A DNA stretch of 64,000 bases from Acidobacteriota bacterium (lineage in GTDB: Bacteria > Acidobacteriota > Vicinamibacteria > Marinacidobacterales > Marinacidobacteraceae): positions 66,144-130,143 of the forward strand of contig JAPPGX010000191.1 of the NCBI GenBank assembly GCA_028877265.1, written 5' to 3'. The notes under the pieces were generated by a model. The model was given only the letters and a program-made list of their open reading frames with translations, had not been told where the DNA came from and did no database searches. Position numbers and translations under genes: made by a program. Position 1 is the first letter of the stretch. The number at the start of each line of letters is the position of its first letter. Shown here one piece after another: positions 15,858 to 59,577 of this stretch.

Positions 15858-15864
15858 GGGCGAC

Positions 15865-26029: not shown

Positions 26030-26039
26030 CCCAGTCCGT

Positions 26040-33067: not shown

Positions 33068-33206
33068 CGTTCTCGTCGATGCGGAGCGCTGGAGCCTGCC
33101 AGCCAGCGCTCCGCTCAAGCGCCCCCGACCCATCGGGGCGCGTATGATGGAGATTCGGCCGGCCGCGAACCTTGCGGATCGGCCTTCAGGCAAGGGAGAC
33201 GGACGG

Positions 33207-35001: not shown

Positions 35002-36531
35002 GTGGGCTTGAGGAATCGCGTTCTCCTGGCGGCGATCCTTCTTGGCGGGGGATTTGTGTTTCCGGCGGCGGGCGGTTGCGCCCTGCGGTCGGGAGGTTCC
35101 CCCGACCTGGCGCAGGAGGCGGCCCCCGAACTGCCCTCCGACTTTGCCGAGAATCCAGCCAGCGGAGCCCGCCAGGCGCAGGAGTGGTGGCGGGCGTTCG
35201 CCGATCCCGCGCTCGACCACGTGGTCGAATCGGTACTGGACTCCAATTTCTCCGTGGCGGAAGCGGTAGCGCGGGTCGAGCAGGCCCGAACGCGGGCCCG
35301 GCTGGCCGACGCGGCGATCCTGCCCACGGTCGGAGCGAGCCTCACCGCGGAAACCTTCGACCTGCCCACGAACGCCGCGATCGGCGCCCAACTCGAGGAC
35401 CTCGGTCTCGATTTCCCGCTGCCCGACCGGCTGGGCTTCCCGACCTATACCCTGGGCGCGGACTTTGCCTACGAAGCGGATTTCTGGGGCCGCGTCCGGC
35501 ACACCGCACTCGCGGCGGGATCCGAACTGCTGGCCTCGGAGTTCGACCTGCGGGTCGCCCGCATCGGCATCCTCGCCGAGACGATCTCGGCCTACTTCGA
35601 AATCGGCCATCTCCGGCAACAACTCGCCATCGCTCGAGGGCACGTGGAACTGCTCGAGGAACGCGAGCGGCTGGTCGAGAGCCGCTACGAACGTGGGCTT
35701 GCCGTCTCGCTCGAACTGCACGGCGTGCGTCAGGCTCTCTCGAGCGCCCGGGCCGGCGTGCCGCAGGTCGAGAATCAACTCGCCGAGACCGAGTCGCGGC
35801 TCGCCGTGCTGCTGGGAGGCTACCGGGAGGATGTCGCGGCGATCCTTCCCGAATCCCTCTCCCCGGAATCTCCAGCCGAACCGGTGCCCGCAGGCATTCC
35901 GGCCGACCTCCTTTCGCAGCGCCCGGACGTGCAGGCCGCGGGTCACCGGCTGGAAGCCGCCGGACACACCGTCGAAGCCCGTCGGGCCGCGTTGATGCCG
36001 CAGCTTTCGCTCTCCGGATCCATTGGACTCCGGAGTACGGACGCCGGAGGCCTCTTCGACGTCAAGCAGTGGTTCACGAACCTCGCCGGCAACCTCCTTC
36101 GTCCGGTGTTCGACGGCGGCCGGCTCGCGAGCGGCGTGGAACTGGCCGAGGCCCGCTTCGACGAGTTGGCGGCGGCCTACGGCCGGACCATCGTTACCGC
36201 GGTCAACGAGGTGGAAGCGGCCCTGGCCACCCTCAGGAACGAAGGCCGGCGGCAGGAATCTCTCGCCGCGCAGCACGAGGAGGCCCGCGCCTCCGTCGAA
36301 GCTCAGTCCAGGCGCTATGAGGCGGGCATCAGCGGCTATGGCGATCTGCTCGATGCGAATGCCAGACTGCTGGATGCGGAATCGGCGCTCGCGGGTTCGG
36401 CGCGGAACCTGGCGCTCGCCCGCCTCGCCATCCACCGGGCTCTGGGGGGCGCCTGGACCGCCCCGGACGAGATGGCCAGCGCGCCGGCGAGCACGCCGGA
36501 TGCCCGCGCCAAAGGACCGGCCGACCGATGA
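35002..36531 (+). CDS. RND efflux outer-membrane factor lipoprotein (NodT family)
   Basis: A lipobox is present in LLGGGFVFPAAGGC. 'WWRAFADPALDHVVESVLDSNFSVAEAVARVEQAR' is the typical NodT N-terminal repeat. The second repeat reads 'LLSQRPDVQAAGHRLEAA'. Confidence 0.85.
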   Translation: MGLRNRVLLAAILLGGGFVFPAAGGCALRSGGSPDLAQEAAPELPSDFAENPASGARQAQEWWRAFADPALDHVVESVLDSNFSVAEAVARVEQARTRARLADAAILPTVGASLTAETFDLPTNAAIGAQLEDLGLDFPLPDRLGFPTYTLGADFAYEADFWGRVRHTALAAGSELLASEFDLRVARIGILAETISAYFEIGHLRQQLAIARGHVELLEERERLVESRYERGLAVSLELHGVRQALSSARAGVPQVENQLAETESRLAVLLGGYREDVAAILPESLSPESPAEPVPAGIPADLLSQRPDVQAAGHRLEAAGHTVEARRAALMPQLSLSGSIGLRSTDAGGLFDVKQWFTNLAGNLLRPVFDGGRLASGVELAEARFDELAAAYGRTIVTAVNEVEAALATLRNEGRRQESLAAQHEEARASVEAQSRRYEAGISGYGDLLDANARLLDAESALAGSARNLALARLAIHRALGGAWTAPDEMASAPASTPDARAKGPADR

Positions 36532-37745
36532 ATCGAACGAAGGGATTCATCCTGGCGGCGATCATCCTGCTGGGATCGTTCGGGATCGCAACCCTGCTGA
36601 TCGCGCAGCGGCCGGAGCCCGAGCGGCGCGAACCTCCCTCCCGGATTCCGTTCGTCGTCACGGCGCCCGCGGTCGCGGGTTCGGGGCCGATCCCGGTCCA
36701 CGGCGCCGGGACGGTCCGGCCCCGCGTCCAGGTGGAGGTGGCCGCCGGGGTGAGTGGACGGGTCGTCCGGGTTGATCCGGGCTTCGAGAGCGGCGGCCGG
36801 GTCAGCGAGGGTCAGGCGCTCTTCCGCCTCGACGACGCCGACTACCGCTTCCGGGTGGAGCAGGCCCGTTCCGGCGTCGCCGTACAGCAGGTGGAACTGC
36901 TGAAGGTCGAGGAGGAAGCGCGGATCGCCCGCGAGCAGTACGAAGCGTTCCAGAGCCGCCGTGGCGCCGCCGGGGACGCGGAAGCGAGTCCCCTGGCGCA
37001 CTGGGAGCCGCAGCTCGAGGCGGCGCGGGCCGGTGTGGAACGGGCCCGCGCGCTCCTCGCGGAAGCCGAACTCCTGCTCGCGCGAACCGAAGTTCGGGCG
37101 CCCTTCGACGCCGTGGTGCGCTCCGAGAGCGTCGGGGTCGGACAGTTCGTGACCGCAGGGGTCGGCGTCGGCCGGATTTACGCCTCCGATGCGGTCGAGA
37201 TCGTCGTCCCGCTGTCCGACGCCGATGCGGCGCTCGTCCCGGGTCTGTGGGACCTGAGGCCGGGAGTCGCGGATCGTCGGGCGGCGGCCCGGGTCACCGC
37301 GGACTACGGGACCGGCGCCTATGCCTGGGACGGGTACGTGGACCGGGTCGAGGCCGCACTGGATGAAACGACGCGCACCCTCGATGTGATCGTGCGCGTT
37401 CCGAACCCCTTCACGGGTGGTTCCCGGGTGCAAGCGGGAGAAGCGAGCGCGGACGCCGGATCCGCGCCGCCGCTCCTGATCGGCCAGTTCGCGAACGTCG
37501 AGATATCGGGGATCGCGCCGGAGGAGTACTTCCGGATCCGGCGGCTGGGGCTCCGGCCGGGCAACGAGGTCTGGGCGGTGGACGGCGAGGCGGTGACCAT
37601 CGTTCCGGTCCGCGTGCTGCAGCGCTTCGACGACACCGTCTACGTCACCGGCGGGCTGCAGGAAGGCCAGGAGGTAGTCCTGAGTGGCATTCAGTTCGCG
37701 ACCGAGGGACTGAGGGTGCGGACCGCCGCGAACCCGGACCCTTGA
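36528..37745 (+). CDS. RND efflux periplasmic adaptor (membrane fusion protein)
   Basis: The start overlaps the OMF stop as ATGA. An N-terminal TM anchor is followed by 'VSEGQALFRLDDADYR', a coiled-coil hairpin, 'TEVRAPFDAVV', and a beta-barrel/MPD ending 'VVLSGIQ'. Confidence 0.8.
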   Translation: MNRTKGFILAAIILLGSFGIATLLIAQRPEPERREPPSRIPFVVTAPAVAGSGPIPVHGAGTVRPRVQVEVAAGVSGRVVRVDPGFESGGRVSEGQALFRLDDADYRFRVEQARSGVAVQQVELLKVEEEARIAREQYEAFQSRRGAAGDAEASPLAHWEPQLEAARAGVERARALLAEAELLLARTEVRAPFDAVVRSESVGVGQFVTAGVGVGRIYASDAVEIVVPLSDADAALVPGLWDLRPGVADRRAAARVTADYGTGAYAWDGYVDRVEAALDETTRTLDVIVRVPNPFTGGSRVQAGEASADAGSAPPLLIGQFANVEISGIAPEEYFRIRRLGLRPGNEVWAVDGEAVTIVPVRVLQRFDDTVYVTGGLQEGQEVVLSGIQFATEGLRVRTAANPDP

Positions 37746-38850: not shown

Positions 38851-38872
38851 CGCGGCCAGGCGCCCGCCTGGC

Positions 38873-40252
38873 TCAGGCGCTCCGGAACCGCCAGCCGTAC
38901 ATCACCCGGCCGTAGAAGTTGAACCACTTTCTGGCCTCCGGGTCCTCGAACGGATAGTCCGCGCCGAGCTGTCTCGCCGTGACGAGGCCGGACACGAAAC
39001 AGGTCTCCTGGCTGTTGACCAGGGTGTGCGCGCCACAGTGCCAACTCCGCCGCTTTCCCTGGACGAAGCGAAACAACTGGGTCAGGAAGGCGACGTGAGG
39101 CACGTCGTGCACGATGTGCTGAAACCACCACCTCTTGACGATCCTGCTCTCGTCGATACGGCTGATCGGGTTGTAGGTCACGAGACACGGCTTGTCCGAC
39201 GTGTTCGCCCAGGGCTGCTGGTTGTGCATGATGTAGGTGATCTCGTAGTTGTCGGGCCGCGCGCCGTACTGCTCGATGTGGTTGCTCCGGGTGGCGAGCG
39301 GCCTGGCCTCGTTGTCGGGGAGGACCGAGGCGTCCGAATGCACGACCGTGTGGTTGTGCAGTTCGCTTTCGTACCGGATCGAGGAGAGGAGCCAACCCTC
39401 CAGCCGCGTCGGCCTGTCGAGGAGCATCAGCGTCTGGTTCGCGTTGCACGCGAAGACGACTTCGTCGAAGGTTTCGGTCCTTCCGTCCTCGTCCTCCACG
39501 ACAACCTCGTTACGGCGCCGGTGGACCCTTCGCACCGGCCGGTTCAGATAGATCTTCTCGCGAAAGGCTGCGGACAGATCCCGGTAGATCCGCCGGGTGC
39601 CCTGATCCCAGGTCTGCATCGGCGTCGCGGTCTCGATGTCGAAGAAGTCCAGGTACCGCGAAAAGAGCGACGCCGGCATGTCGAACACGTTCGTCGCCAT
39701 CAGGAAGTTGACGAACATGGGCTTCAGGACCTTGTACCGGAAGTCCCCCGAGTACCTTCCCAGGTTCAGCAGCGCTCCCATGCTGACGTAGTTGAACGGG
39801 TTAAGGGAGCTGAGCAGCTTCGACCTCGAGACGTTGAGCCGGCCGAACCACTTCAGACGTCTCAGGAGACGCTGGAACTTCTGGATTTCCGGTTGCAGTT
39901 GCCTCCTGATGTCGGAGTCGAAGTCGTGGGCATAGATTCCGCCTCGATACTTCACGCTGTAGTTGAACCGCGTTTCGAGCAGCTCGATGCCGTGCTGTTG
40001 CATGAGCAGGACGAAGTGGTGGTATGCCGACGGTATGCACGCGGTGACCGAGATATCGAACGGCACCGTGCTGCCGTCGTCCTGCGGCATGTCCGCAGTG
40101 ATCGCATTGCCGCCGAGCTGCGCCTGCGCTTCGAAGAGCCGAAAATCGAAACGGTCCCGGTGGCGGTTGAGCGCCCACGCCGTCCCGAGCCCCGAGGCGC
40201 CCCCACCGACAATGGCAACCCTTCTCGGCGCGCCGCCCTTCGCTTCACCCAC
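38873..40252 (-). CDS. Rossmann-fold NAD(P)/FAD-dependent oxidoreductase (amine-oxidase/COG2907-like)
   Basis: The N-terminal dinucleotide motif is 'RVAIVGGGASGLGTAWAL...LFEAQAQLGGN'. The protein is 459 aa. The C-terminal 'WHCGAHTLVNSQETCFVSG' resembles the COG2907 tail. Confidence 0.7.
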   Translation of the reverse strand: MGEAKGGAPRRVAIVGGGASGLGTAWALNRHRDRFDFRLFEAQAQLGGNAITADMPQDDGSTVPFDISVTACIPSAYHHFVLLMQQHGIELLETRFNYSVKYRGGIYAHDFDSDIRRQLQPEIQKFQRLLRRLKWFGRLNVSRSKLLSSLNPFNYVSMGALLNLGRYSGDFRYKVLKPMFVNFLMATNVFDMPASLFSRYLDFFDIETATPMQTWDQGTRRIYRDLSAAFREKIYLNRPVRRVHRRRNEVVVEDEDGRTETFDEVVFACNANQTLMLLDRPTRLEGWLLSSIRYESELHNHTVVHSDASVLPDNEARPLATRSNHIEQYGARPDNYEITYIMHNQQPWANTSDKPCLVTYNPISRIDESRIVKRWWFQHIVHDVPHVAFLTQLFRFVQGKRRSWHCGAHTLVNSQETCFVSGLVTARQLGADYPFEDPEARKWFNFYGRVMYGWRFRSA

Positions 40253-40431
40253 ATTCCTACTCTACCTTTGGGGTGCGGCCGCCCCGTCCGCTCGCCGCCG
40301 CCGCAGTAGGCGGTCCGGGGACCCTGCCGACCCCTTGCCCGCCCGCTCCATCGACTAGACTCTGACCCGGACCATCCAGTGGCGGCGGATCGGTGGGGCT
40401 GTCGAGCCGCCTCGGCTGGAGGTTGAGCACC

Positions 40432-42450
40432 ATGAGCGAGGGCACCCGGTTTCCGATCCGAATCGCCGAGGAGTTGATCCTCCTCATGCTGGACGAGCAG
40501 AGCGGCTACCTCGAGATGGTTCCGAACTGGGACTTCTCCTGTGTCATGGCCGGGGCCGTGCTCGCCGACCTGGCCCTGGAGCGTCGCATCGAGACCGACC
40601 TGGAGCGGTTGTACCTGGTCGATCCCTCACCGACCGGAGATGAGTTGCTCGACCCGACGCTCAAGGACATCGCCGAATCCGACGAAAAATCGGACGCCCA
40701 GTTCTGGATCGAACGGAACACCCGCCAAGCCGACGAAATCGTCGCAGCCGCCCTCGAGCGCCTGGTGGAGCGGAACATCCTTACCCACGAGAGCGGCGGA
40801 TTCTGGGGGCTCTCGCGCTCTGTCGCCCGTTCAGGGACTTTTCCGACCCAGGCTGTCGCGACCCGCCGGGAATCCAAGGTGAGGGTCCTGAGCGTCATCC
40901 TGAACGACGAGATCCCGGACCCGCGGGACGCCATCCTGGTCGCGCTGATGCACACCTGCGGCGGCTTCAAGCTGCTGCTGGAGGAAGAGGACTACGAAGA
41001 GCGGCTCGCCCGCATCGAACTCGTCGCCAAGCTGGACCTCATCGGACGGACGGTCGCCGCCGCCGTGAAGGACAGCACGGCGAGGCCCAAGACCCGTCGC
41101 GTCGTTCAGACGAAGCCCATTCCCAAGCCTGGGTATCTCGTACTGCTACAGCGCGACTTCCTCTCCGGCAACATCTCGAAGGCGATGTACGGCATGTATC
41201 GAAAACACGGGCCGGTCGTCAGGATGCCCTTCAAGATCCGCGGCAAGCCCGTCGTTTCGTTGATGGGTGCCGATGTCAATCACTGGGTCAATCGGCACGG
41301 ACGGTTCTATCTCCGCTCGAAGGACTACATCGAAGGGCTGGAGCACGCGTTTGGCGCATCCCGGAGTCTCCCCGGAATGGATGGCGCCGAACACTATCGA
41401 ATGCGCAGGGAACTCCAGACTGCGTATTCCCGCGCCACGCTCGCGCAGCGGCTGCCGGAGCTGATCGACGACTGCCGGAAATCGCTGAGCCGTTGGAAGG
41501 AAGGGGATGTCTTCCGCGCCACCGAGAGCTTTCAGAACCACATCAGCAGTCAGATCTCCAATTTCGCGATGGGAGTGGATTGCAGCCACTATGTCGACGA
41601 ACTGTTGGCCTTTGAACACCGTGCACTGATAACGCGGGTCCAGGGCGCATTGCCGGATTTCATGCTGTCCACCCCAAGAATGAAACGGTATGGGAAGCGT
41701 GTCAGGGAACTCCAGGAGGCGATCACCGCGGGACACACGACGGCGCTGCGCAAGGGAAAGCCCCGGGATCTGGCCGACGCGATTCTCGATCTCCACAAGA
41801 GGGACCCGCAGTTCCTTCCCGAAACGGACCTCACCTTTCCCTTCGTGGCTTCCATGGTTGCGAGCATCTATCTCGGCAGCGGACTGGCCTTCACTGTTTA
41901 CAACATGGTTCGAAACCCGGACGTGTACGCGAGGGTCCGGAGCGAGGCCGAGTCGCTGTTCGGCAACGGTCGTGAACTTGCGGGAGATGACTTCAATCAC
42001 CAGAGCATCGACGTCACGGTGCGTCTCTGCATGGAATCCTCGCGTATGTACCCGGTGATTCCATGGCAGTTGAGAACGGTCATGAACGAGTGCATCGTCA
42101 GTGGTTACGAGATACCGCCGAAGACGATGTTGCTGATTTGCCAGACTGCGCCGCACTATGCCGAGGATCTGTACCGGGATCCGTTGAAGTTCGATATCGA
42201 TCGGTACTTGCCGGACCGGGCCGAGCATCTGCAACCGGGCGCCTATGCGCCCTACGGCCTGGGTACGCACATGTGCCTCGGCCACCGGTGGGTGGAACTT
42301 CAGATGGCCGTCAACGTCCTGCTCATCGCGCATCACCTGCAGCTCGAAGTGGTGCCCGGCAACTACAAGATGGGAATCAATCCGTTCCCGACCTTGGCCC
42401 CCAACAGGAAGCTGAAGTTCCGCGTCGCCGGGGTCCCGCGTCCCGTGTGA
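40432..42450 (+). CDS. Fusion protein: an N-terminal GPP34/GOLPH3-like domain joined to a C-terminal cytochrome P450
   Basis: GGAGG lies 10 nt upstream of the ATG at 40432. GPP34 blocks are 'IAEELILLMLDEQSGYL', 'VMAGAVLADLALERRI' and 'PDPRDAILVALMHTCG'. P450 blocks are the ExxR 'ESSR' followed by 'MYP' and the heme-Cys loop 'YAPYGLGTHMCLGHRW'. Confidence 0.8.
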   Translation: MSEGTRFPIRIAEELILLMLDEQSGYLEMVPNWDFSCVMAGAVLADLALERRIETDLERLYLVDPSPTGDELLDPTLKDIAESDEKSDAQFWIERNTRQADEIVAAALERLVERNILTHESGGFWGLSRSVARSGTFPTQAVATRRESKVRVLSVILNDEIPDPRDAILVALMHTCGGFKLLLEEEDYEERLARIELVAKLDLIGRTVAAAVKDSTARPKTRRVVQTKPIPKPGYLVLLQRDFLSGNISKAMYGMYRKHGPVVRMPFKIRGKPVVSLMGADVNHWVNRHGRFYLRSKDYIEGLEHAFGASRSLPGMDGAEHYRMRRELQTAYSRATLAQRLPELIDDCRKSLSRWKEGDVFRATESFQNHISSQISNFAMGVDCSHYVDELLAFEHRALITRVQGALPDFMLSTPRMKRYGKRVRELQEAITAGHTTALRKGKPRDLADAILDLHKRDPQFLPETDLTFPFVASMVASIYLGSGLAFTVYNMVRNPDVYARVRSEAESLFGNGRELAGDDFNHQSIDVTVRLCMESSRMYPVIPWQLRTVMNECIVSGYEIPPKTMLLICQTAPHYAEDLYRDPLKFDIDRYLPDRAEHLQPGAYAPYGLGTHMCLGHRWVELQMAVNVLLIAHHLQLEVVPGNYKMGINPFPTLAPNRKLKFRVAGVPRPV

Positions 42451-42517
42451 CCGCGGGGGCGCGTAACGGCGCGGCCGACCCCGGAGTGTTTCTCAGGACT
42501 CGCTTCCACACGTATCG

Positions 42518-45500
42518 ATGAGTTCCGATCCAGGCAACCACGCGGAACCCCGTGGACCGATCGCCTACATGGCGAGCAACGGCGTGGCGTCCAACTTGCT
42601 GATGTTCGGCATCCTCGCGGTGGGCCTCGTGTCGCTGACCGGCCTCGAGCAGCAAGCGTGGCCCACGGTGCCTTTCAACCAGTTCGAGATCTCGGTGCCG
42701 TTCCCGGGCGCAACGCCCCAAGAGGTGGAGGAGGCCATCGTCGTCAAGATCGAGGATGAGGTCAGGGGATTGGCGGAGGTGAAGACGGTCCGGTCCGTAG
42801 CGGCCCCGGGAATGGCGTCCGTCAGGGTCGAAGTCAACTCCGGTACGGACATGGGCGCGAAGAGGGACGAAATCGAGTCGGCGGTCGCGCGGATTCAGAC
42901 CTTCCCGGGTGGGGCCGAGCGGCCCCAGATCCGTGAAATGACGAACGCCCAGAGCATGATGCGTCTCGTCCTCTACGGCGACGTTCCAGAGCGCTCGCTG
43001 AAGGAGCTCGCCCACCGGATCGAAGACGATCTCGCGTCGCTCCCGAACGTGTCCCTGGTCGAGACCAGCGGGGTGCGCAACTACGAGATCTCGATCGAAG
43101 TGCCGCTCGAGCGGCTGCGGGCCCTTGGGCTCACGCTGACCGACATCGCCAACACGGTTCGCCGCGGTTCCCTGGACCTGTCGGCGGGCAGCATCGATAC
43201 CGCGCAATCCCGGGTGCGGATTCGGACCCTCGGCCAGAGCTACGACCAGCAGGACTTCGAGGACATCGTCGTCCTCGGCCGCGCCGACGGCACGGTGGTG
43301 CGCCTGGGTGAGATTGCCGAGGTGCGCGACGGCTTCCACGACTCAGGTTTGCTGGTGCGGTACCAGGGCGAGCCAGCCGTGTTCGTCGAGGTTTCGCGAG
43401 CCGATGGCGAGAGGGTGATGGACGTGGCGCGCGCCGTTCGGGAACACGTCGCGAACGAGATAGCGCCCTCGCTCCCGGACGGCATGGGCATCGACATCTG
43501 GAACGACGACTCTTCGGTCTTCTCGGAACGTGCCCTCCTTCTCCTCAAGAATGGAGCCTTGGGGCTGTTGCTGGTCCTGATCGCGCTGGGTCTGTTTCTC
43601 CAGCTTCGGCTGGCGTTCTGGGTCGCCGTCGGCCTCGGCGTTTCCGCGATCGGCGCCCTGGCCGCCATGATGGTGTTCGACATCCCGCTCCACGAGATTT
43701 CGCTCTTCGCCTTCGTGCTCGCCATCGGCATCGTCGTGGACGATGCGATCGTCGTGTCGGAGCACATCCACGAGGAACGAAAGCGCGGCACGCCGGGACT
43801 CGCGGCGGCGATCCGGGGCGCGCGACGCATCAAGGTGCCGCTGGTCTTCGCGGTGCTGACGACCATCGTGGCGTTCCTTCCGCTGCTCTTCATACCCGCG
43901 GGGTTCGGAGAGGTGTGGAAGGCACTGCCGATCGTCGCTATTGCCACGCTGCTCTTTTCGCTGGTCGAATCGCTCCTGGTGCTGCCCAATCATCTGTCCC
44001 ATCATCTGCACGGCCCGGATTGGGCGCCCCGGACGGGCATGGAGCGGTTCGTCGCCCGGATCCAGAATCGGGTCGATTCCTGGTTGAACCGCTTCATCCA
44101 GGGACCCGTGGACCGCGGGATCCAGTTGGCGACGGACTGGCCCGGGGTGACGGTTTCGGCGGCCGTTGCGCTGCTCGTCCTGAGCATTTCCCTTCTTCCG
44201 GCCGGCATCGTTCCCACCACCTTCGCGACGAAGGTCGAAGGCGACTTCGCGATCGCCACCCTTGAGATGCCGGAAGGAACGACCGCGCCGCAAACGTACG
44301 CCGTGGCGCAACACCTGGAATCGGCCGGCCGCCGGGCCGTCGAGCGGCTCTCCCAAAGCCGGCCCGCTGACGCGCCTCCCCTCTTGTCCGGAGTTACGGT
44401 CGTCGTCGGCCAGCGGTCGCGGCTCGAAACCGGAGGCCTCAATCCCTCGCCCACTTTGAACCCGGAAGCCAATGTCGCGACCATCGAGTTCAAGCTCCTG
44501 AGCGCCCAGCTGCGGAGCATCACTTCGGGAGACGTCGTGCAGGCATGGCGCGAGGAGGTGGGTGTCCTGCCTCAGGTACGCGCGGTCACCTTCATCAGCG
44601 AGATCTACACATTGGGCAACCCCGTCGAGGCGGCGCTGTCCCACCCGGATCCGGAACGCCTCAACGAGATCGCGAATTCCACCGTCGCCGGCCTCGGCAG
44701 GGTCGGAGGCGTCTTCGACATACGCTCGGATCACACTCCCGGGATCCCGGAAGTCCAGGTGGGACTACTTCCCGAAGCGCGCACCCTGGGCCTCACGCTG
44801 GATGATCTTGCCCGGCAGACGCGAGCGGCCTTCTTCGGTGAGGAGGCCGTGCGGGTGCAGCGGGGACGTGACGAAGTTCGGGTCTACGTCCGGTTACCCG
44901 AGGAGCAACGGAACGCGATCACCGACGTCGAGAGTTACCGGCTCCGGACGCCAACTGGCGCCGACGTGCCGGTCAGCCGCGTGGCTTCGCTGAGTTCGGG
45001 CACCTCGCCGCCGGCCATCCGGCGCCAGGACGGCCAGCGGATTGTGACCGTTACCGCGGATGTCGATCCGAGTGTGACTTCCGCCGCGACCGCCAACGAC
45101 ATTCTGGAGAACACCATCCTGGCGGGGCTCATCGCGGAGAACCCGGAACTGACCTATACCTTCGGAGGGGAACAGCAACAACAGCTCGACTCCCTGGGCG
45201 GTCTCTATCGCGGATTCGTGATCGCGCTGCTCCTGATCTTCGCGCTGCTGGCCATTCCCCTGCGCTCCTACACGAAACCGTTCATTGTCATGGCCATCAT
45301 CCCGTTCGGGTTCGTCGGGGTGATCCTGGGTCACTGGATGCTGGGGGTCGCCGTGAGCGCGGAGTCCTTCGTCGGGATCTTCGGGTTGGCCGGCGTGGTC
45401 GTCAACGACTCCCTGGTGATGATCGATTTCACCGACCAGAAGCTCCGGGACGGCATCCCGGTGCGAACCGCGATCATCGAGGGCGCGAAGGGACGCTTCC

Positions 45501-45721
45501 GCCCGATCATGCTGACTTCCCTGACGACCTTCCTGGGTTTCACCCCCCTGATTCTCGAGGACGCGATTCAGGCGCAGTTCTTTGTTCCCTTCTCCGCCTC
45601 GATCGGTTGCGGCATTCTCTTCACCACGGTGATCATCATGTTTCTGGTGCCCGCGCTTTCCTCGATCCACCTGCGCCTTGGCTCGGCCCGGCAACAACTG
45701 GCCGCCGAGGGTTCCGGTTGA
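42518..45721 (+). CDS. RND efflux permease (AcrB/HAE-like inner-membrane transporter)
   Basis: The protein is 1067 aa. Blocks are 'ASNLLMFGILAVGLVSL', the TM4 block 'LAIGIVVDDAIVVSEHI', and the second half-repeat 'AGVVVNDSLVMIDF'. It lies 67 nt downstream of the P450 gene on the same strand. Confidence 0.85.
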   Translation: MSSDPGNHAEPRGPIAYMASNGVASNLLMFGILAVGLVSLTGLEQQAWPTVPFNQFEISVPFPGATPQEVEEAIVVKIEDEVRGLAEVKTVRSVAAPGMASVRVEVNSGTDMGAKRDEIESAVARIQTFPGGAERPQIREMTNAQSMMRLVLYGDVPERSLKELAHRIEDDLASLPNVSLVETSGVRNYEISIEVPLERLRALGLTLTDIANTVRRGSLDLSAGSIDTAQSRVRIRTLGQSYDQQDFEDIVVLGRADGTVVRLGEIAEVRDGFHDSGLLVRYQGEPAVFVEVSRADGERVMDVARAVREHVANEIAPSLPDGMGIDIWNDDSSVFSERALLLLKNGALGLLLVLIALGLFLQLRLAFWVAVGLGVSAIGALAAMMVFDIPLHEISLFAFVLAIGIVVDDAIVVSEHIHEERKRGTPGLAAAIRGARRIKVPLVFAVLTTIVAFLPLLFIPAGFGEVWKALPIVAIATLLFSLVESLLVLPNHLSHHLHGPDWAPRTGMERFVARIQNRVDSWLNRFIQGPVDRGIQLATDWPGVTVSAAVALLVLSISLLPAGIVPTTFATKVEGDFAIATLEMPEGTTAPQTYAVAQHLESAGRRAVERLSQSRPADAPPLLSGVTVVVGQRSRLETGGLNPSPTLNPEANVATIEFKLLSAQLRSITSGDVVQAWREEVGVLPQVRAVTFISEIYTLGNPVEAALSHPDPERLNEIANSTVAGLGRVGGVFDIRSDHTPGIPEVQVGLLPEARTLGLTLDDLARQTRAAFFGEEAVRVQRGRDEVRVYVRLPEEQRNAITDVESYRLRTPTGADVPVSRVASLSSGTSPPAIRRQDGQRIVTVTADVDPSVTSAATANDILENTILAGLIAENPELTYTFGGEQQQQLDSLGGLYRGFVIALLLIFALLAIPLRSYTKPFIVMAIIPFGFVGVILGHWMLGVAVSAESFVGIFGLAGVVVNDSLVMIDFTDQKLRDGIPVRTAIIEGAKGRFRPIMLTSLTTFLGFTPLILEDAIQAQFFVPFSASIGCGILFTTVIIMFLVPALSSIHLRLGSARQQLAAEGSG

Positions 45722-45758
45722 CGGGGCGGGCGGACGAAGAGCCCGTCGGGGCGCCGGG

Positions 45759-46814
45759 CTAGCCCGAAAGGGGCCGGCGCGCCACGAAACAGTAGAGCGG
45801 GGTGAAGATCCCCGTCTTGCCCCCCGCGACGTAAGCGTCCGCGGTCCGGTCCAGGAGAGCCACCACCTCCGCCGAGCCCCTCGGGAACGCACCGAAGAAC
45901 TCGGCCAGCCGGACTCCCCACCGCAGCGCCTTGCGGCCCATCGGAATCCGGCGGAACGCGCTGCCGGGCAACCCGCGGAGGGTTTCCATGGGCTGATACC
46001 ACGGCGTGTCCTGACGGTGCCCGTCGGCGGCGAGGTCCTCACCCTCCAGGACTTCGAATCCTGCGGTTGCGAGCGCCCGGTTGACCTCCCCGAACGTCGC
46101 AATGTCCTTGAGCGCGATGCCGTGCATGAGCTCCTGCTTGATGGCGCGGTGCCGGTCGTCCCCCGGGTCGTACAGGTCCGTCATGCACATTTCCTGGCCC
46201 CAGAAGAGGGCTCCAGGTTTCAGCACTCGGTAGATCTCGGCGAACGCGCCCGCCTTGTCGTCCGCGTGGCAGGTTGATTCGATCGCGTAGCCGCGGTCGA
46301 AGGTCCGGTCCGCGATCGCGCTCATGTCCATGAAGCTGCACTGGAGACAGTCGGTCTGGCCGGCGAGCCCCGCGGCCTCGTTCAAGCGCCTTGCGTTGTT
46401 GCACTGGACTTCGCTGGCGTTGATTCCGACAACGCGGACTCCAACCTCCCTCGCCACGCGGCGCATCGGACCGCCGATCCCGCATCCGACATCCACGACG
46501 GTCATGCCCGGACGCAGTTCGAGCCTGGACATCATGAGTCTCTGGTGCCGGATCTTGGAGTCCTCCAGGCTTTCGCCGGGCGACAGCGGCGCAAAGTGCA
46601 GGGACTCTCCCCAACCCATGACCATGAACTCGGTGCAAAGGTCGTAGTACTCCTTGACGGTCCGCGTGTGGTCGTACCCCCCGTCGGCATCCCCCCGGGG
46701 GGATGCCCTGTCGGTCCATCCTTCGAAGTCCCGCACGCGGTTCGTGACGTTTGATCCGCCGAACGCAGTTCTCAACCCATCGGATAGCCCACGGATTTGT
46801 CCGGTGAACTTCAC
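45759..46814 (-). CDS. Sterol 24-C-methyltransferase (ERG6/SMT) family SAM-dependent methyltransferase
   Basis: Blocks, compared with ERG6/SMT1 from memory: 'EYYDLCTEFMVMGWGESLHFAP' (SMT region I, YEYGWGxSFHF); SAM motif 'VVDVGCGIGGP'; 'YAIESTCHA' (ERG6 YAIEATCHA); 'IYRVLKPGA'; 'PWYQPM'; and the C-terminal 'YVAGGKTGIFTPLYCFVARRP' (ERG6 LVAGGKSKLFTPMMLFVARKP). The start at 46814 is GTG. Confidence 0.85.
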   Translation of the reverse strand: MKFTGQIRGLSDGLRTAFGGSNVTNRVRDFEGWTDRASPRGDADGGYDHTRTVKEYYDLCTEFMVMGWGESLHFAPLSPGESLEDSKIRHQRLMMSRLELRPGMTVVDVGCGIGGPMRRVAREVGVRVVGINASEVQCNNARRLNEAAGLAGQTDCLQCSFMDMSAIADRTFDRGYAIESTCHADDKAGAFAEIYRVLKPGALFWGQEMCMTDLYDPGDDRHRAIKQELMHGIALKDIATFGEVNRALATAGFEVLEGEDLAADGHRQDTPWYQPMETLRGLPGSAFRRIPMGRKALRWGVRLAEFFGAFPRGSAEVVALLDRTADAYVAGGKTGIFTPLYCFVARRPLSG

Positions 46815-47147
46815 GGCGTGTTCTGGCCCGGTTCCGGCTCTCGCAGGCCACCCGGACGTGCGAAACCGGTTCTTCGCACCGGGGGCCGTTGAAGACGGGG
46901 CCCCGCGGGTCGCGGTTCCGCCAGCGGTCGCGGGGACGCACGGCGGATAGCCGCCACGTCAGCCGGCACCCGGACTTCCCTCCCCCCCAAGACAGTGGAT
47001 AGTCTAGTGGAGGCGTTGCGGACCCCGGGAGCACGCCGAAGGAGATGGACGGATGCGCAGGAAACGCCAACTCTCGCTGTTTCCGGCCGTATCCGGGGTG
47101 CTCTCTGGACGCCCGGACCACCGCCGCGAAGGAGCCGCTGCCGGTTG

Positions 47148-48851
47148 GTGACGTTTCGCTATCTCCTTGTTGCGGGCCTCCTCGGGTTCGCCGGTTGTGC
47201 GCCGGGGCCGGCGGAAACCCGTTTCGAGGTTTCCTTCCCGGCGGAGCTTCACGAAGGACCGATCACCGGCAGGGCCTACGTGGTCATCGGGACCGAGCCG
47301 GACATCGCGGCGATCCGGCAGCGGAGCCTCGGTCACCAGCCGGTGTCCGCCGCGCGCGGCGTCCCGTTCTTCGCGGTGGACGTCGAGGGGCTGGCGTCCG
47401 GCCAACCCGCGGTGATCGACGGTTCCACCCTGGGATACCCGGTTGAGCGCCTCGCCGAACTCCCCGCCGGGGACTACTACGTGCAGGCGCTCCTCGTCCC
47501 GTACACCGAGTTTCACCGCGCCGACGGGCACGTGATCTGGGCCCACCGGGACGAGTGGGAAGGGCAGCACTTCAACTGGGCCCCCGGCACCCTGCTCAGC
47601 GACGCGGAGAGAGTCCGGCTCGATCCGGCGAGCGGCTTCTCCTTCCGCCTGCGCCTCGTCGAGGAACTTCCCGAGATCGAGGTGCCGCCCGACGACATGT
47701 GGGTGCGGCGGGTGAAATTCGAGAGCCCGATGCTCAGCGAGTTCTGGGGCCAACCGGTCTATCTCGGAGCCACCGTGCTGCTTCCGGAGGGATACGACTC
47801 GCATCCGGACACCTGGTACCCAACGGTGTATCAGCAGGGCCATTTCAGCCTCGACCCGCCGTTCGGGTTTTCGGCGGACCCGGTGGAGGAATCGGCAGCC
47901 GCCCGCGCCGCAAGGCTCGAACGCGGGGTCGAGAACGGTTTCGAGTTCTTCGAGTCCTGGCGGTCTCCAGGCTTCCCGCGGATGGTCGCGGTCACCTTCC
48001 AGCACCCGACCCCTTATTTCGACGACTCCTACGCGGTGAATTCGGCCAACAACGGCCCCTACCAGGACGCCCTCATGACCGAGTTGATCCCTTACCTCGA
48101 GGAGCGGTTCCGGATGATCCCGGAGGGGTGGGCGCGCCTGCTCACCGGCGGATCCACCGGCGGATACGAAGCGCTCGCCCTCCAGGCGCACCGGCCGACC
48201 GACTTCGGGGGCGCCTGGGTCTTCTATCCGGATCCCATCGACTTCCGGCGGTTCTTCCTGATCAACATCTACGAGGACGAGAACGCGTTTCGCGCGCCCG
48301 GCTGGAGTGACGGGCAACTCGCTCCCGAGCGCTACGCGTTCCGCGACGATGACGGCCAGCCGCTGCAGAGCATCCGCGAGCTGAGTCGACTGGCGTCCGT
48401 CCTCGGCAGCCGCGGGAGGTCGACCGACTATCTGGAAGCTTGGGAAGCGTCCTTCGGGCCCGTCGGCGAGGACGGCTACCCCCGTCCTCTCTGGGACAAG
48501 CGGACCGGTGTCATCGACCGCGAGGTGGCGCGCTACTGGCGGGAGAACGGCTACGACCTCCGCCACTACCTCGAGACGAACTGGGGAGAGATCGGCCCCG
48601 ACCTGGTGGGCAAACTCCACTTCATCTGCGGGGACATGGACAACTACTACTTCAACCACCCGGTCTATCTCATCGAGGAATTCCTGGAGGCCACCGAGAG
48701 CCCCCACTACGGCGGTTCGTTCCGCTACGGGCGGCCCAACAAGGGACACGGCTGGACGCCGATCACGAACGCGGAGCTGTTCCGGGAAATGGCGGCGCAC
48801 CTGACGCGGAACGCGCCGCCGGGCGCCGACACCCGCGGGTGGAAGTACTGA
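47148..48851 (+). CDS. Esterase-like alpha/beta-hydrolase lipoprotein (putative esterase / enterochelin-esterase-like)
   Basis: The proposed GTG start at 47148 gives VTFRYLLVAGLLGFAGC, which contains a lipobox. A G-x-S-x-G nucleophile elbow lies in 'LLTGGSTGGYEALALQ'. The family call is tentative. Confidence 0.5.
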   Translation: MTFRYLLVAGLLGFAGCAPGPAETRFEVSFPAELHEGPITGRAYVVIGTEPDIAAIRQRSLGHQPVSAARGVPFFAVDVEGLASGQPAVIDGSTLGYPVERLAELPAGDYYVQALLVPYTEFHRADGHVIWAHRDEWEGQHFNWAPGTLLSDAERVRLDPASGFSFRLRLVEELPEIEVPPDDMWVRRVKFESPMLSEFWGQPVYLGATVLLPEGYDSHPDTWYPTVYQQGHFSLDPPFGFSADPVEESAAARAARLERGVENGFEFFESWRSPGFPRMVAVTFQHPTPYFDDSYAVNSANNGPYQDALMTELIPYLEERFRMIPEGWARLLTGGSTGGYEALALQAHRPTDFGGAWVFYPDPIDFRRFFLINIYEDENAFRAPGWSDGQLAPERYAFRDDDGQPLQSIRELSRLASVLGSRGRSTDYLEAWEASFGPVGEDGYPRPLWDKRTGVIDREVARYWRENGYDLRHYLETNWGEIGPDLVGKLHFICGDMDNYYFNHPVYLIEEFLEATESPHYGGSFRYGRPNKGHGWTPITNAELFREMAAHLTRNAPPGADTRGWKY

Positions 48852-51222: not shown

Positions 51223-52011
51223 TTAACCGGGCTCTTCGACGAGGGACAACGTCAGCTCCGCGAACGGCTCCTCCCGCACACTCGCGGGCAGTTCCTGAAT
51301 GAGGCCGATCGGTTCATGGGGTGTGACATCGGCGTTCCGGGCGGTGAACGTCGCCCCGCTGTCGGTCCCCGAGTCGTAGCCGATCAGCTCCACCCCGATT
51401 CGTTCCATCCAGCATCCACCGGCTTCCATCAGGGGCATCCCGCTCACCCCGACGAACCAGTCGGGGCTGGGTGCGATCATCGAGACCAGAGTCATCAGCG
51501 GGTGTTCTGCCGTCGCCTCGAAGATCAGCCCGACCGATCCCGGCGACGGGAAGGAGGCCTCCGAGCCTCTCACGCAGGTGGTGCTCCCACCGCGATCCGC
51601 CTCCGCGTCGATTTCCCGGCAGAGCGAGGACACGCTGCCGGTCTCAGCCATGTTCTCGATGCCCGGAGTGGCAATGCCGCCGGAACTCCAGAACGAAACC
51701 TCCGGCGCGTGGGCTGCCCCGGCCACGCGGGAAAAGTGCGCTCCCGACGGGAAGGGCGGCTGGTTGCCGTGCGAGGACGCATTCCAGACGGCCCGGAACG
51801 TCACCGCGTAGGTCGCTGAATCCGGGCACTCGGGTTCGGGTTCCGGCATCGGCGTCGGAGCCGGCGAAGGCGGAGCCGGGGGCGCAGGCGCCGGGGGAGG
51901 CGTCGGCGCCGGCGTGGAAGGTGCATCGGACCCGCACGCCAGCGCGAACAGAGCGAGGACGAGACAGGCGAACGCGCCAAGGCGGGAAGTGCGCGTGACT
52001 GACGGGAGCAT
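51223..52011 (-). CDS. Spondin_N domain lipoprotein with a Pro/Ala-rich linker
   Basis: The ATG at 52011 gives MLPSVTRTSRLGAFACLVLALFALACG, which contains a lipobox. A linker PSTPAPTPPPAPAPPAPPSPAPTPMPEPEPE follows. Spondin_N blocks are 'YAVTFRAVWNASSH', 'AHFSRVAGAAH' and 'SMIAPSPDWFVGVSG'. Confidence 0.7.
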   Translation of the reverse strand: MLPSVTRTSRLGAFACLVLALFALACGSDAPSTPAPTPPPAPAPPAPPSPAPTPMPEPEPECPDSATYAVTFRAVWNASSHGNQPPFPSGAHFSRVAGAAHAPEVSFWSSGGIATPGIENMAETGSVSSLCREIDAEADRGGSTTCVRGSEASFPSPGSVGLIFEATAEHPLMTLVSMIAPSPDWFVGVSGMPLMEAGGCWMERIGVELIGYDSGTDSGATFTARNADVTPHEPIGLIQELPASVREEPFAELTLSLVEEPG

Positions 52012-52071: not shown

Positions 52072-54018
52072 TCAGCGGATCAGGAAGGGGAGTTCTCCGA
52101 CTGCCGAGCGATTGCGGCTGGCGTCGGTGACCCGGATCACCGCGGTGTATCTCCCGGCCCGGAGCGGCCCGGTCTGGAGCGGCAGCATGATGGGCGTCCC
52201 TTCCAGGCGACGCGGATCGAGATCGAAGCGTCCCGGCCGTTCGGCCTCGACGGCAACGTCGCCGATCGCGTTCCGGATCTCGTAGGCCACCCGCACCTGG
52301 GAGACCGGATCCTCGTTCCCCGGAAAGATGAAGAAGGCCACCCGGGCATCCTCCGCCTGCGCGAACGTGGCGACGGGCCTCACCGGCGGGCCGACCGCTT
52401 CCGGTGCGTGAGCCTCGGCGACGAAAGGAAAGACGCTCGAGAGCGAGAAGGTTTCTCCGAATCCGGTGGGGATGACCAACGCGGACGACCCCGCGTGCAC
52501 CCTTTCTCCTCCCCGCTCCACCACCAGCTCGAGCCGGTGTTCTCCGGATGGCAACTCCGCGGGCGTTGAAACCCAGAAACGCCGGATGTCCACCCGCCCG
52601 GCCGCCTCGCTCAGGACCGCCCCGCCGGGCCCCACCACGCGCAGCCGCACCTCGGCCGGCTCTTCCAGGTATGACTCCGGCAGTGCGGCGGCGAGCACCC
52701 CGAAGGCGCCGTGTGGACTGGGGTTCAGCAGGTATGCGTAGGTGTTCAGATCCTCCGGGAAGGCGTAGTCGTAGTCGCCGCGCGCGGCCGCTTCGACCAC
52801 GTCGCCGCGGCGCCGCGCGAAATAGCCCGGTCGGGCGATGACCCGCAGGTCGGGCCGATCCCGTACCCGGACCTCGATCTGCCGGTACTCGCCGTCCAGT
52901 TCCGTCTTCGTCGGTGAAAACGACAGGAGGTAGTAGAGCTGGTTCTGGATGCCGATTCGGTTCAGGGCGACGGCGAAGTTGGTCTGGTTCGGGAAGTAGG
53001 TGCCCCCGGTCGCCACCGCGAGGGAGGCGGTGCCGCCCTCCATCGGGACGTTGGCCGCCGCATCCATGCGCGTCAAGGGGTGGTCGTCCGGCTCGACCGG
53101 CAGGGGATTCCCCATCACGTCGAAGGCGTTCAGCGCAGGATTCAGGATGTTGTTTTCGAAGCCGTACACCCCCGCGAGATTCACCGCGTAGAGCGTCGCA
53201 TTGGCGTGGTTCAACTGGAGGATCGCATCCCGGAGCGAGTTCGTTTCGTCGAGGGCGCGCCGTCCCGGGAACTCATCCACCTCGGTTCCGGCGATCTCGC
53301 CGACGACCTGGCGTGGATCCGCAAAGGTCTGGAGGTCCATGGACAGGAACACCACGATCTTGCGGCCTTCCACCCTCTCGAGCGCTTCCGCGAGCGCGAA
53401 GAGCATGCGGAACGAGTCGCGGGCGTCGATTTCGGGACCGACGGGACTCTGGTAGGTGCCCGGCACGATCCGCCGCACGTTGGCCAGCGTCTGTTCCTTT
53501 CCGGAATAGAACTCCTGGAGAACCCGGACGGTGTGCGCGAACTCCAGGATCATGGTTTCGTCGCCGTCCACCATGTGCTGGGACACGAATTCCTCGAGGC
53601 CCCGCTTGGCGCGCCGCAGGTTCACGGGGTCGGCGCCGCGACGGTTGAAGACGATCACGAACCGGCGGGGCGACGCGTTGCCGGCGTCGTCCGCCTCGAG
53701 TTCCGGCGCCGGGGGCGGGACATCGTCCGGGACGGCCTCCCCGAGTTCGTAGCGTTCCCAGTCCACGACGTCGAGGCTCGCTACGCGCTGCTCCTCTCCG
53801 TCCTCGAACAGTTCGAAATCCCCGGGGCTCAGACCGGGAACGGGGTTCCCGTCGCCGTCGAGCACCAGTACGTCCACGATGACCCGGGTGGCGGCGGCCC
53901 GGAACCGGAAGGTCTGGCCGGCCGCCGCGGCGGCAGCAAGGACGGCCCCGAGGACGATCAGCCCGCAAGCGAGTCTCGTCCCTCGGAGGGTCTTCACCGA
54001 GTCGGGTTTCCGGAGCAT
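52072..54018 (-). CDS. VWA domain protein, TIGR03436 (Acidobacteria-type VWFA-related) family, with a long C-terminal extension
   Basis: The ATG at 54018 is followed by a signal. 'VIVDVLVLDGDGNPVPGLSPGDFELFEDGEEQRV' is the family's N-terminal Ig-like module. The VWA core includes 'FVIVFNRRG', 'KIVVFLSMD' and 'NATLYAVNL'. Confidence 0.75.
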   Translation of the reverse strand: MLRKPDSVKTLRGTRLACGLIVLGAVLAAAAAAGQTFRFRAAATRVIVDVLVLDGDGNPVPGLSPGDFELFEDGEEQRVASLDVVDWERYELGEAVPDDVPPPAPELEADDAGNASPRRFVIVFNRRGADPVNLRRAKRGLEEFVSQHMVDGDETMILEFAHTVRVLQEFYSGKEQTLANVRRIVPGTYQSPVGPEIDARDSFRMLFALAEALERVEGRKIVVFLSMDLQTFADPRQVVGEIAGTEVDEFPGRRALDETNSLRDAILQLNHANATLYAVNLAGVYGFENNILNPALNAFDVMGNPLPVEPDDHPLTRMDAAANVPMEGGTASLAVATGGTYFPNQTNFAVALNRIGIQNQLYYLLSFSPTKTELDGEYRQIEVRVRDRPDLRVIARPGYFARRRGDVVEAAARGDYDYAFPEDLNTYAYLLNPSPHGAFGVLAAALPESYLEEPAEVRLRVVGPGGAVLSEAAGRVDIRRFWVSTPAELPSGEHRLELVVERGGERVHAGSSALVIPTGFGETFSLSSVFPFVAEAHAPEAVGPPVRPVATFAQAEDARVAFFIFPGNEDPVSQVRVAYEIRNAIGDVAVEAERPGRFDLDPRRLEGTPIMLPLQTGPLRAGRYTAVIRVTDASRNRSAVGELPFLIR

Positions 54019-54386
54019 GGACAGTCTGCCCGCGGCCCTATTCCGGGGCGGAGCTCGGCGCCGGCAGCACGGTGCAGCCGCTGCATCCCGGGACCCGGAC
54101 CTGCAGGACTCCGGATTCTCTCTCGCCGGCCTCCGTTTCTCCAACACGCCGCACGAACGTCAGGCGGTACCAGACCCGGTGGCGGGCTTCGATGCAGTCG
54201 AGCGGCCGCCGGAACCCGGTGGCGCGGGCGAAGTAGAGCCCGCCGGTTGCAGCCGCCAAGCCGGAAAGGATGTCGTCCTCCCTGCGGGGCGAGACGGTTC
54301 GGACACGGCTTTCATGGGAGGTGGAGGAAAAGGCCCGGAACGGGTTCGACTCGTCGCGTTCGGCCGTCAGGATGCGCTACTCGTGG

Positions 54387-59307: not shown

Positions 59308-59577
59308 CCCCCTCACGCCGGGGAAACCGGTTCGCGAAAGGCCGGTGCCGAGTGTGGTCATCACCGACCACCTGTGGCGAGTGCATCACGCCATCCATTC
59401 GCGGCGCAAGGCGCCGCGGGGGAGGGGTTTCCCCTCCCCGCGAAAAAGGATGGCGCGGATCGCGGAGCGAACCGCGCCATCACCCGTGGGAGGGGCGCCC
59501 CGCGCCTGAAACCCTCCGGCGGATGCGGCGTGTGCATCACGTCGAGTGTCACGCGGGGTGCTCTTTTCACGGGTGGC

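Follow-up and report, generated by a model that had tools for sequence, protein, structure and literature searches.

In the fossil record, 24-alkyl and 26-methyl steranes stand for early eukaryotes and sponges, and it therefore matters which organisms, and which enzymes, alkylate sterol side chains. Sterol C-24 methyltransferases (SMTs), represented by ERG6 in yeast and by SMT1 and SMT2 in plants, are already known from bacteria, and 20 out of 24 metagenomic SMTs were active in vitro, three of them as propylating enzymes (Brown et al. 2023). All functional SMTs have 25 residues in common, F89 among them (Brown & Welander 2025), and mutations that alter the number of methyl groups have been described at positions 81, 218, 219 and 223 in yeast (Y81F, G218L, T219L and Y223F), together with G249 in propylating bacterial enzymes (Brown et al. 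2023; Brown & Welander 2025). In sponges of the genus Ircinia, SMT1/ERG6 and ERG24-CYP51-LSS clusters are enriched in the metagenome-assembled genomes (MAGs) of symbionts from the same bacterial classes as those considered here, and the sterol genes are often scattered around the chromosome (Kelly et al. 2022). Here, we focus on a gene of the SMT family, located at positions 45759-46814 of a 64,000-nucleotide stretch of an Acidobacteriota contig (JAPPGX010000191.1, assembly GCA_028877265.1), hereafter called the window. As judged from its residue signature and phylogenetic position, its product is a member of a distinct paralogous subfamily (SMT-2, or 'M81/L89') and not a classical C-24 SMT. 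Since bacterial SMTs are already known, what is new is this well-defined subfamily variant and its link to a protein fusing a GPP34 domain with a cytochrome P450.

The open reading frame (ORF) starts with a GTG codon and codes for 351 residues. Its GC content at third (0.83) and second (0.53) codon positions, in a window of about 68% GC, fits a real gene. An identical protein is annotated on the metagenome contig ERZ23495471 of ENA ('ROBB21-1_SAMN13943213' scaffold_1041), and homologs, 345-352 residues long, have their N-terminus in common with it. No promoter or terminator was found by scanning positions 45600-47100. The translation holds, in order, EYYDLCTEFMVMGWGESLHFAP, DVGCGIGGP, YAIESTCHA, IYRVLKPGA, PWYQPM and YVAGGKTGIFTPLYCFVARRP, the motifs on which a first-pass annotation, made from the sequence without database searches, had founded the assignment to ERG6/SMT. 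This assignment is confirmed by a BLASTP match with yeast ERG6 of 37% identity over 332 residues (217 bits, E 3e-72), the yeast sequence being a reconstruction that matched 32/32 residue/position pairs of Brown & Welander 2025 and was checked at these positions only. The Sterol_MT_C domain, whose loss would have spoken for another family, is intact in the alignment to the Pfam profile (59 bits for a cutoff of 21.7, profile positions 3-65 of 66), and G333, G352, F357 and P359 (yeast numbering, used throughout) are retained. Further Pfam matches are to Methyltransf_11 (62.5 bits) and CMAS, while no NCBIfam model scored above its cutoff. The Region II motif of class I S-adenosylmethionine (SAM) methyltransferases, D125-x-G-x-G-x-x-G-P133, is present, and its five residues are invariant in 120/120 close homologs of the window protein, to which all counts out of 120 refer.

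Searches of the PDB by sequence and by fold found no SMT structure. Among solved folds, those closest to the window protein belong to olefin C-methyltransferases (TleD, geranyl and farnesyl diphosphate methyltransferases, cyclopropane and mycolic-acid synthases), all matches in the fold search being generic olefin or small-molecule methyltransferases, and the non-SMT methyltransferases of the PDB reach at most 82 bits against the 217 bits of ERG6. A search of 1.84 billion cluster representatives yielded 249 representatives of the family at E <= 1e-30. The clades nearest to that of the window protein include rice 'cycloartenol-C-24-methyltransferase 1-like' proteins, proteins of sponge-symbiont Acidimicrobiia ('Ca. 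Poriferisocius') named sterol methyltransferase by NCBI, and Dadabacteria proteins. Given the ERG6 match and these neighbouring clades named as SMTs, the window protein is placed by homology within the SMT superfamily, and not, by best match or tree position, with cyclopropane fatty acid/mycolic-acid synthases or tocopherol methyltransferases.

Like ERG6 and plant SMT1/SMT2, the protein combines a class I SAM methyltransferase domain with Sterol_MT_C, and Regions I-IV are recognisable. Its Region I, however, reads FMVMGWGESLHF instead of the eukaryotic FYEYGWGxSFHF, a deviation that the first-pass annotation had noticed correctly, with the good guess that specificity might change, and that proves more informative than any other feature of the protein. 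M81, V82, M83 and L89 stand where yeast has Y, E, Y and F; in Region IV, A218, L219 and Q223 replace the G, T and Y of eukaryotic enzymes; position 249 is I instead of D; and the N-terminal extension of the eukaryotic type is absent. Among the 25 residues of functional SMTs, 24 are kept and the sole exception is F89, replaced by L in the window protein and in 120/120 close homologs, none of which thus has the complete set of Brown & Welander 2025. T78 and L341 also deviate in many members of the clade. The other replacements are equally regular (Y81M and T219L in 120/120 homologs, D249I in 119, Y223Q in 118, G218A in 111, and E82, mostly to V, in 104). The aromatic residues (Y or F) sought at positions 81 and 83 of Region I are not a feature of the clade, in which M81 is invariant and position 83, M in the window protein, is F, W, L, Y or M elsewhere. 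Other positions have not moved: none of the 120 homologs departs from E195, G217 or W286, little or no variation is seen at G333, G352 and P359, and the mean column identity among clade members across phyla is 79%.

Among about 120 full-length family representatives, the signature M81/L89/L219/Q223/I249 is restricted to one clade, to which the window protein, whose residues at the five positions are M, L, L, Q and I, belongs. Position 81 is Y or F in nearly all other representatives, and almost all of them, including two validated bacterial SMTs, read F-[YF]-E-[YFW]-G-W-G-x-S-F-H-F in Region I. In a neighbour-joining tree of a 134-sequence set aligned with MAFFT --auto, the clade, together with a sister lineage (P0143) of 40% identity, was recovered in 100/100 bootstraps, and 121/121 clade motifs from 126 fetched loci carry both M81 and L89. 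The two validated bacterial enzymes ('10000835 1 of 2' and the SMT of a Chlamydiae MAG) are members of the same family, and the sponge-symbiont habitat, as well as the gene cluster in Nitrospira, is common to validated and clade enzymes; in contrast to the window protein, they read FFEFGWGQSFHF and FYEFGWGKSFHF in a Region I of canonical type, lack none of the 25 conserved residues and have G at position 249, and they adjoin genes for a fusion of squalene epoxidase and oxidosqualene cyclase (SE-OSC), CYP51, ERG24 and SdmA/SdmB, where the window gene has other neighbours. The window protein is about as distant from them as from ERG6, with Kimura distances of 1.04-1.17. Both sequences are approximate, being hand reconstructions from DNA of the preprint supplement with indels due to optical character recognition; they were checked at 15 + 1 published mutation positions and served only as tree anchors and search seed. 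Taken together, the replaced positions argue that this subfamily is one with a remodelled sterol pocket and altered specificity positions.

With regard to activity, one member of the clade can be traced to a published assay. A search with the reconstructed sequence of the validated SMT 'A. aerophoba JGIcombinedJ30088_10000835 1 of 2' (SMT#1) led to a protein of 96% identity in a Nitrospira sp. MAG, on a contig with the order Amino_oxidase, MMPL, 3beta-hydroxysteroid dehydrogenase (sdmB), Rieske/VanA_C (sdmA), ERG4_ERG24, a P450 of CYP51 size, SE+OSC fusion, SMT#1, KshA_C fragment, SMT#2 and GPP34/P450. The same order is found on three sister contigs, one of which is the Joint Genome Institute (JGI) contig Ga0209021_1000731, and it agrees with the published table of the cluster for genes 9 and 11-16. 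SMT#2 shares 69% identity with the window protein, carries the signature as SEFMVYGWGESLHF and adjoins a GPP34-P450 fusion gene. Its identity with ERG6 is 122/347 = 35.16%, and 35.16% is also the published value for the tested gene JGIcombinedJ30088_100008359; the same contig order, the SMT#1 match and this identical figure together identify SMT#2 as the tested '2 of 2' protein. The link was made via SMT#1 and its contig, the contig names of the 34 clade loci in JGI metagenomes giving no match with the tested list. Supplementary Figure 1 of the preprint places 'Aplysina aerophoba meta JGIcombinedJ30088_10000835 SMT 2 of 2' in the class 'No activity', the substrates being desmosterol and 24-methylenecholesterol, and SMT#1 is the validated enzyme that performs all three C-24 methylations alone. 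Activity was also absent from two more '2 of 2' SMTs, one of a Nitrospira coral-reef MAG and the other of a Theonella Chromatiales MAG, which share 34.5-35.6% identity with ERG6 and, given these similar values, may belong to the same clade.

The first-pass annotation had concluded that the bacterium can C24-alkylate a sterol-like substrate. As stated, this claim finds no support in a protein in which F89 and positions 81, 219, 223 and 249 are replaced, for the standard substrates it is contradicted by the 69%-identical ortholog, and the 64-kb window contains no oxidosqualene cyclase or squalene epoxidase. An ordinary C-24 SMT, one that makes 24-methyl or 24-ethyl sterols from a Δ24 sterol of the zymosterol, lanosterol, cycloartenol or desmosterol type, would nevertheless account for the homology with SMTs over the full length, for Sterol_MT_C and for the 24/25 residues retained, and in that case the lack of activity in the assay would be due to specificity for the sterol nucleus or to poor expression. 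Indeed, the published assays covered two substrates only, in E. coli lysate, and four tested SMTs without obvious residue deviations were also inactive, so that negatives are not fully diagnostic. We regard this reading as unlikely, since F89, conserved in every functional SMT tested, is L throughout the clade, since Y81, T219, Y223 and D249 are all replaced, and since the clade member that accompanies a full pathway is a second copy beside an enzyme sufficient for C-24 methylation. Pairing with a canonical SMT also occurs in Chloroflexota, where three Dehalococcoidia/Chloroflexota MAGs (loci L081, L092 and L102) have a canonical SMT, with FYEYGWGRSFHF as Region I, within 10 kb of the clade SMT and no cyclase nearby; such pairs fit distinct, non-redundant roles. 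Weak matches to ERG4/ERG24-like reductases (31-32% identity) lie within 10 kb of the clade SMT at four other Chloroflexota loci (L086, L103, L107 and L119).

The negative assay of the ortholog could also be that of a catalytically dead SMT relic, or of a sterol-binding or regulatory protein possibly engaged with GPP34 in host interaction, the more so as the GPP34-P450 partner has been proposed to serve in the evasion of phagocytosis rather than in metabolism. Such a protein would not be expected to keep its SAM motif and E195, G217, W286, G333, G352 and P359 invariant or nearly so across 120 members, nor its high column identity across phyla, and since the pocket substitutions do not drift but are fixed, a specific new pocket seems to have been selected for. 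A non-catalytic role thus appears very improbable. Conversely, the invariance of the SAM motif and core residues, together with an SMT identity of 67-85% across phyla and the olefin C-methyltransferases as nearest folds, suggests that the window protein is probably active, as a SAM-dependent olefin methyltransferase.

The neighbourhood of the gene gives some indications about its substrate (Table 1). The AcrB gene, convergent with the SMT gene at a 37-bp gap, is all that separates the latter from the GPP34-P450 fusion. The best PDB matches of this fusion are CYP46A1 (1e-20) and CYP51 (5e-18), and the nearest solved relatives of its P450 are CYP46A1 (cholesterol 24-hydroxylase), CYP51 and CYP24A1. 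We considered whether the P450 could be CYP51 itself and rejected this, the score against CYP51 structures being about 68 bits, and the Rieske protein was likewise rejected as SdmA (36.8 bits for an NCBIfam cutoff of 600). Squalene epoxidase, LSS/OSC, CYP51, ERG24, sdmA and sdmB are absent from the window, in which none of the 37 ORFs scanned has a cyclase or squalene epoxidase Pfam domain, and no cyclase motif was found in 691 kb of flanks.

Table 1. Features of the window related to the SMT-family gene and its partners
Feature	Size or residues	Position	Strand	Evidence
Outer-membrane efflux protein (TolC-like)		35002..36531	+	Pfam OEP, 151 bits
RND membrane-fusion (HlyD-family) protein		36528..37745	+	Pfam HlyD_3
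KshA-type Rieske oxygenase (Rieske + KshA_C)	331 aa	37855..38850	+	Pfam; best PDB match KshA, 3e-24
Amine-oxidase-family flavoenzyme (LkcE-like)	459 aa	38873..40252	-	Pfam Amino_oxidase; PDB LkcE, 5e-27
GPP34 (GOLPH3-like) + cytochrome P450 fusion	672 aa	40432..42450	+	Pfam GPP34 and p450
AcrB-type RND permease		42518..45721	+	Pfam ACR_tran, 512 bits; NCBIfam RND permease
SMT-family paralog, 'M81/L89' subfamily	351 aa	45759..46814	-	ORF, Pfam, ERG6 match, clade monophyly
Sterol_MT_C domain	residues 286-348	45771..45959	-	PF08498, 59 bits, E 5e-16
SAM-binding motif DVGCGIGGP	residues 108-116 (yeast D125-P133)	46467..46493	-	Alignment to ERG6
Region I, TEFMVMGWGESLHF	residues 61-74 (yeast positions 78-91)	46593..46634	-	Alignment to ERG6 numbering

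The partners recur with the clade SMT well beyond the window. Pattern searches of GTDB species genomes gave at least 595 stretches encoding relatives, one of the two patterns possibly matching some canonical SMTs as well, and the neighbours within 10 kb were counted in the 80 best of these species-representative stretches. The P450 domain of the fusion is present in 66/80, the GPP34 domain in 65/80 and a KshA-type Rieske protein in 59/80, followed by the flavin oxidase (38/80), an AcrB homolog of at least 40% identity (33/80) and MMPL (6/80). The SMT and P450 genes are directly adjacent in 49 pairs, 47 of them convergent, with a median gap of 67 bp, and the sister lineage P0143 also has a GPP34-P450 gene, placed after its SMT. 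The identities of the partners rise with that of the SMT (rho 0.52-0.76, for loci that are not independent samples). In a minority of loci, the SMT lies among housekeeping genes. The placement of AcrB is conserved in relatives from Acidobacteriota and Gemmatimonadota, and in Proteobacteria- and Chloroflexota-type loci (L005-L008, 7491-9974) the tripartite pump gives way to an MMPL/Patched-type transporter upstream of the SMT, with weak or faint matches to a sterol-sensing domain. Conserved neighbourhood, adjacency and co-varying identities together suggest that the SMT is functionally coupled to its GPP34-P450, Rieske and flavin partners.

A link of this module with sterols is suggested by its embedding in a complete pathway in the Nitrospira symbionts, the only organisms in which linkage to a de novo sterol cluster was found. 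There, the SMT paralog, the GPP34-P450 fusion, the flavin oxidase and MMPL flank the whole pathway; the flavin oxidase is 78% identical to that of the window and the fusion 44% identical over its full length. The Rieske partner is found only as a KshA_C fragment of 97-99 residues between SMT#1 and SMT#2 (L123 9236-9529; L126 7687-7986), which appears to be a decayed remnant. In the window, the reverse is seen: the Rieske, flavin-oxidase and tripartite RND genes are all intact, and no cyclase is linked to them. Compared with the sterol clusters described in sponge symbionts (the ERG24-CYP51-LSS 'CSGs' of Kelly et al. 2022 and those with sdmA/sdmB of Brown et al. 2023), the window module occurs in the same hosts and bacterial classes, with evidence of horizontal transfer and often an SMT homolog nearby, but it differs by the lack of LSS/OSC, SE, CYP51, ERG24, sdmA and sdmB. 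The scattering of sterol genes reported by Kelly et al. 2022 makes it possible that a cyclase lies elsewhere in the genome of the window. Steroid catabolism, to which the KshA-like and P450 genes might point, was considered and rejected, as an SMT has no role there, KstD and KshB genes are absent, and the cluster that the module adjoins in Nitrospira is a biosynthetic one.

Taken together, these data lead us to favour, with moderate confidence, a sterol-tailoring SAM-dependent olefin C-methyltransferase of non-canonical substrate or position. The enzyme would methylate a sterol side chain other than the Δ24(25) olefin of desmosterol or the Δ24(28) olefin of 24-methylenecholesterol. Its substrate might be a sterol that the P450, Rieske or flavin partners have oxidised or desaturated beforehand, or a side chain already alkylated or differently unsaturated. 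The product might then be passed to the RND or MMPL transporter for export or delivery to the outer membrane. With no linked cyclase in a Vicinamibacteria-like symbiont, the sterol itself may be made by a pathway elsewhere in the genome or be supplied by the sponge host.

Several observations weigh against this tailoring role. The only assay data traceable for the subfamily are negative, as would also be expected of a non-sterol or an inactive protein; the partner enzymes are not orthologs of known sterol-biosynthesis enzymes, being neither CYP51 nor SdmA, and the flavoenzyme having an amine oxidase of a polyketide pathway (LkcE) as its nearest solved relative; SE-OSC, CYP51, sdmA and sdmB each occur in 0/80 loci within 10 kb of the clade SMT; the placing of the signature residues in the pocket relies on a published model for positions 81 and 249; and the predicted structure of the window protein is of moderate confidence only, with a predicted local distance difference test score (pLDDT) of 75.5 and a predicted template modelling score (pTM) of 0.77.

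Some of these points would rather fit a module tailoring and exporting another olefinic lipid or a polyketide-like metabolite, for which the SMT fold would have been recruited to a new acceptor. The SMT-like triterpene methyltransferases of Botryococcus are a precedent of this fold with another acceptor. Besides the missing cyclase, CYP51 and sdmA/B genes in 80/80 genomes and in the window, the flavoenzyme is nearest to LkcE of lankacidin biosynthesis, and the occasional housekeeping surroundings of the SMT point the same way. Large contigs with a clade SMT coincided with the top SE-OSC matches in 0/67 cases, compared with 7/34 for a canonical SMT, among the matches listed, in a biased test; as it compares the best 120 matches per query for different queries, we rejected it as decisive. 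The flanking of a complete sterol pathway in Nitrospira, on the other hand, speaks against a non-sterol substrate, as do the KshA-type Rieske oxygenases, which act on steroids, a P450 whose nearest solved relatives act on steroids too, the sterol-sensing-domain matches of the alternative transporters, weak as they are, and the retention of Sterol_MT_C and most sterol-region residues. Furthermore, sponge-symbiont MAGs of the same classes have been reported with lanosterol-synthase clusters elsewhere in the genome. On balance, a non-sterol acceptor appears unlikely, and sterol tailoring remains the explanation that we prefer.

A more specific version of sterol tailoring would make the protein a methyltransferase for the unconventional side chains of sponge sterols, acting jointly with the P450 fusion, the Rieske oxygenase and the flavin oxidase on sterols of the host or of symbionts. 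Examples would be the C-26/C-27 methylation of Δ25(27) sterols such as codisterol, another alkylation away from C-24(28), or cyclopropanation. Such C-26/C-27 methylation would give aplysterol-type 26-methyl sterols, the precursors of 26-methylstigmastane biomarkers. This proposal is compatible with the inactivity of the ortholog, the remodelled pocket and a co-occurring canonical SMT producing (epi)codisterol, but in such detail it is quite unlikely to be right. The clade provides a concrete candidate for the missing enzymes of these side chains; if the proposal were true, 'sponge-specific' sterol biomarkers would come in part from bacteria of many phyla, and GPP34_L, a hallmark of sponge symbiosis, would be a sterol-tailoring enzyme. 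Independently of it, a large share of the 'bacterial SMT' homologs of sponge symbionts belongs to a separate paralog, and a capacity for C-24 alkylation should not be deduced from their annotation alone.

The fusion adjacent to the SMT has the architecture and the sponge-symbiont habitat of GPP34_L, the GPP34+P450 'long form', which is monophyletic, comprises 656 proteins and is exclusive to sponge symbionts (Microbiome 2025, PMC11706023). In that study, GPP34_L is read as an effector that binds phosphatidylinositol 4-phosphate and modulates phagocytosis, the words 'sterol' and 'methyltransferase' do not occur in the main text, and rare GPP34-Rieske fusions are reported, which echo the Rieske partner of the window module. 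Here, in contrast, a gene of the SMT family has GPP34_L as its conserved neighbour, an arrangement suggestive of a lipid-tailoring P450 targeted to the membrane. The link between the inactive SMT paralog and the GPP34-P450 fusion was not found in the literature cited here on either, and it suggests a horizontally mobile, symbiosis-specific module for the tailoring and export of sterols.

The 80 best carriers are all uncultured MAGs from at least six phyla, and their SMTs share 66-85% identity with that of the window. They comprise Vicinamibacteria and other Acidobacteriota, Bryobacterales, Rhodothermales, Gemmatimonadota, Alpha- and Gammaproteobacteria, Dehalococcoidia/SAR202 and Thermodesulfobacteriota. 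The expectation of the first-pass annotation that bacterial homologs come mainly from uncultured or metagenomic bacteria was right, and the lineage is here a sponge-associated, Vicinamibacteria-like acidobacterial symbiont. The 34 relatives in JGI metagenomes all lie on MKWU01 contigs or on contigs whose prefixes are those of A. aerophoba, Petrosia ficiformis and Sarcotragus foetidus (assignment of Brown et al.). The closest genomes are Vicinamibacteria/Acidobacteria MAGs that share a wider synteny with the window, which therefore comes most likely from a Vicinamibacteria-like sponge symbiont. The MKWU01 contigs are presumably from A. aerophoba.

The GC content falls to 0.63-0.66 over the module (38001-46000), compared with about 0.68-0.72 in most of the window, and a second low-GC stretch is found at 28-34 kb; horizontal acquisition could explain the two of them. 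In a relative of 90% identity, an IS21-family element (Mu-transpos_C_2 + IstB_IS21) lies between the flavin oxidase and Rieske genes (L002 18999-20278). Altogether, the high identity of the SMT across phyla, the GC dip and this element point to horizontal transfer of the module between phyla.

Further genes of the window were noticed in passing. Five long ORFs, at 12491-14518 (+), 15703-16749 (+), 25430-26086 (-), 52072-54159 (-) and 58309-59385 (-), have a coding-like GC content at third codon positions and no Pfam match at E <= 1e-4. Beside the module, a gamma-glutamyltranspeptidase gene (32889-34916, +) is found again in Rhodospirillaceae-like and A. aerophoba metagenome loci (L005-L007, L010 and L011), an adjacency that may be a coincidence. 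Divergent from the SMT gene, an esterase-like protein of 568-618 residues (46995-48851, +), lacking an NCBIfam match, is kept only in the closest relatives, with 63-84% identity in L002, L003 and L010. Finally, a small protein with a Spond_N domain (spondin N-terminal, eukaryote-like), at about 51223-51849 (-) (L001 4966-5592), is kept in two related Vicinamibacteria-like contigs, eukaryote-like proteins being typical of sponge symbionts.

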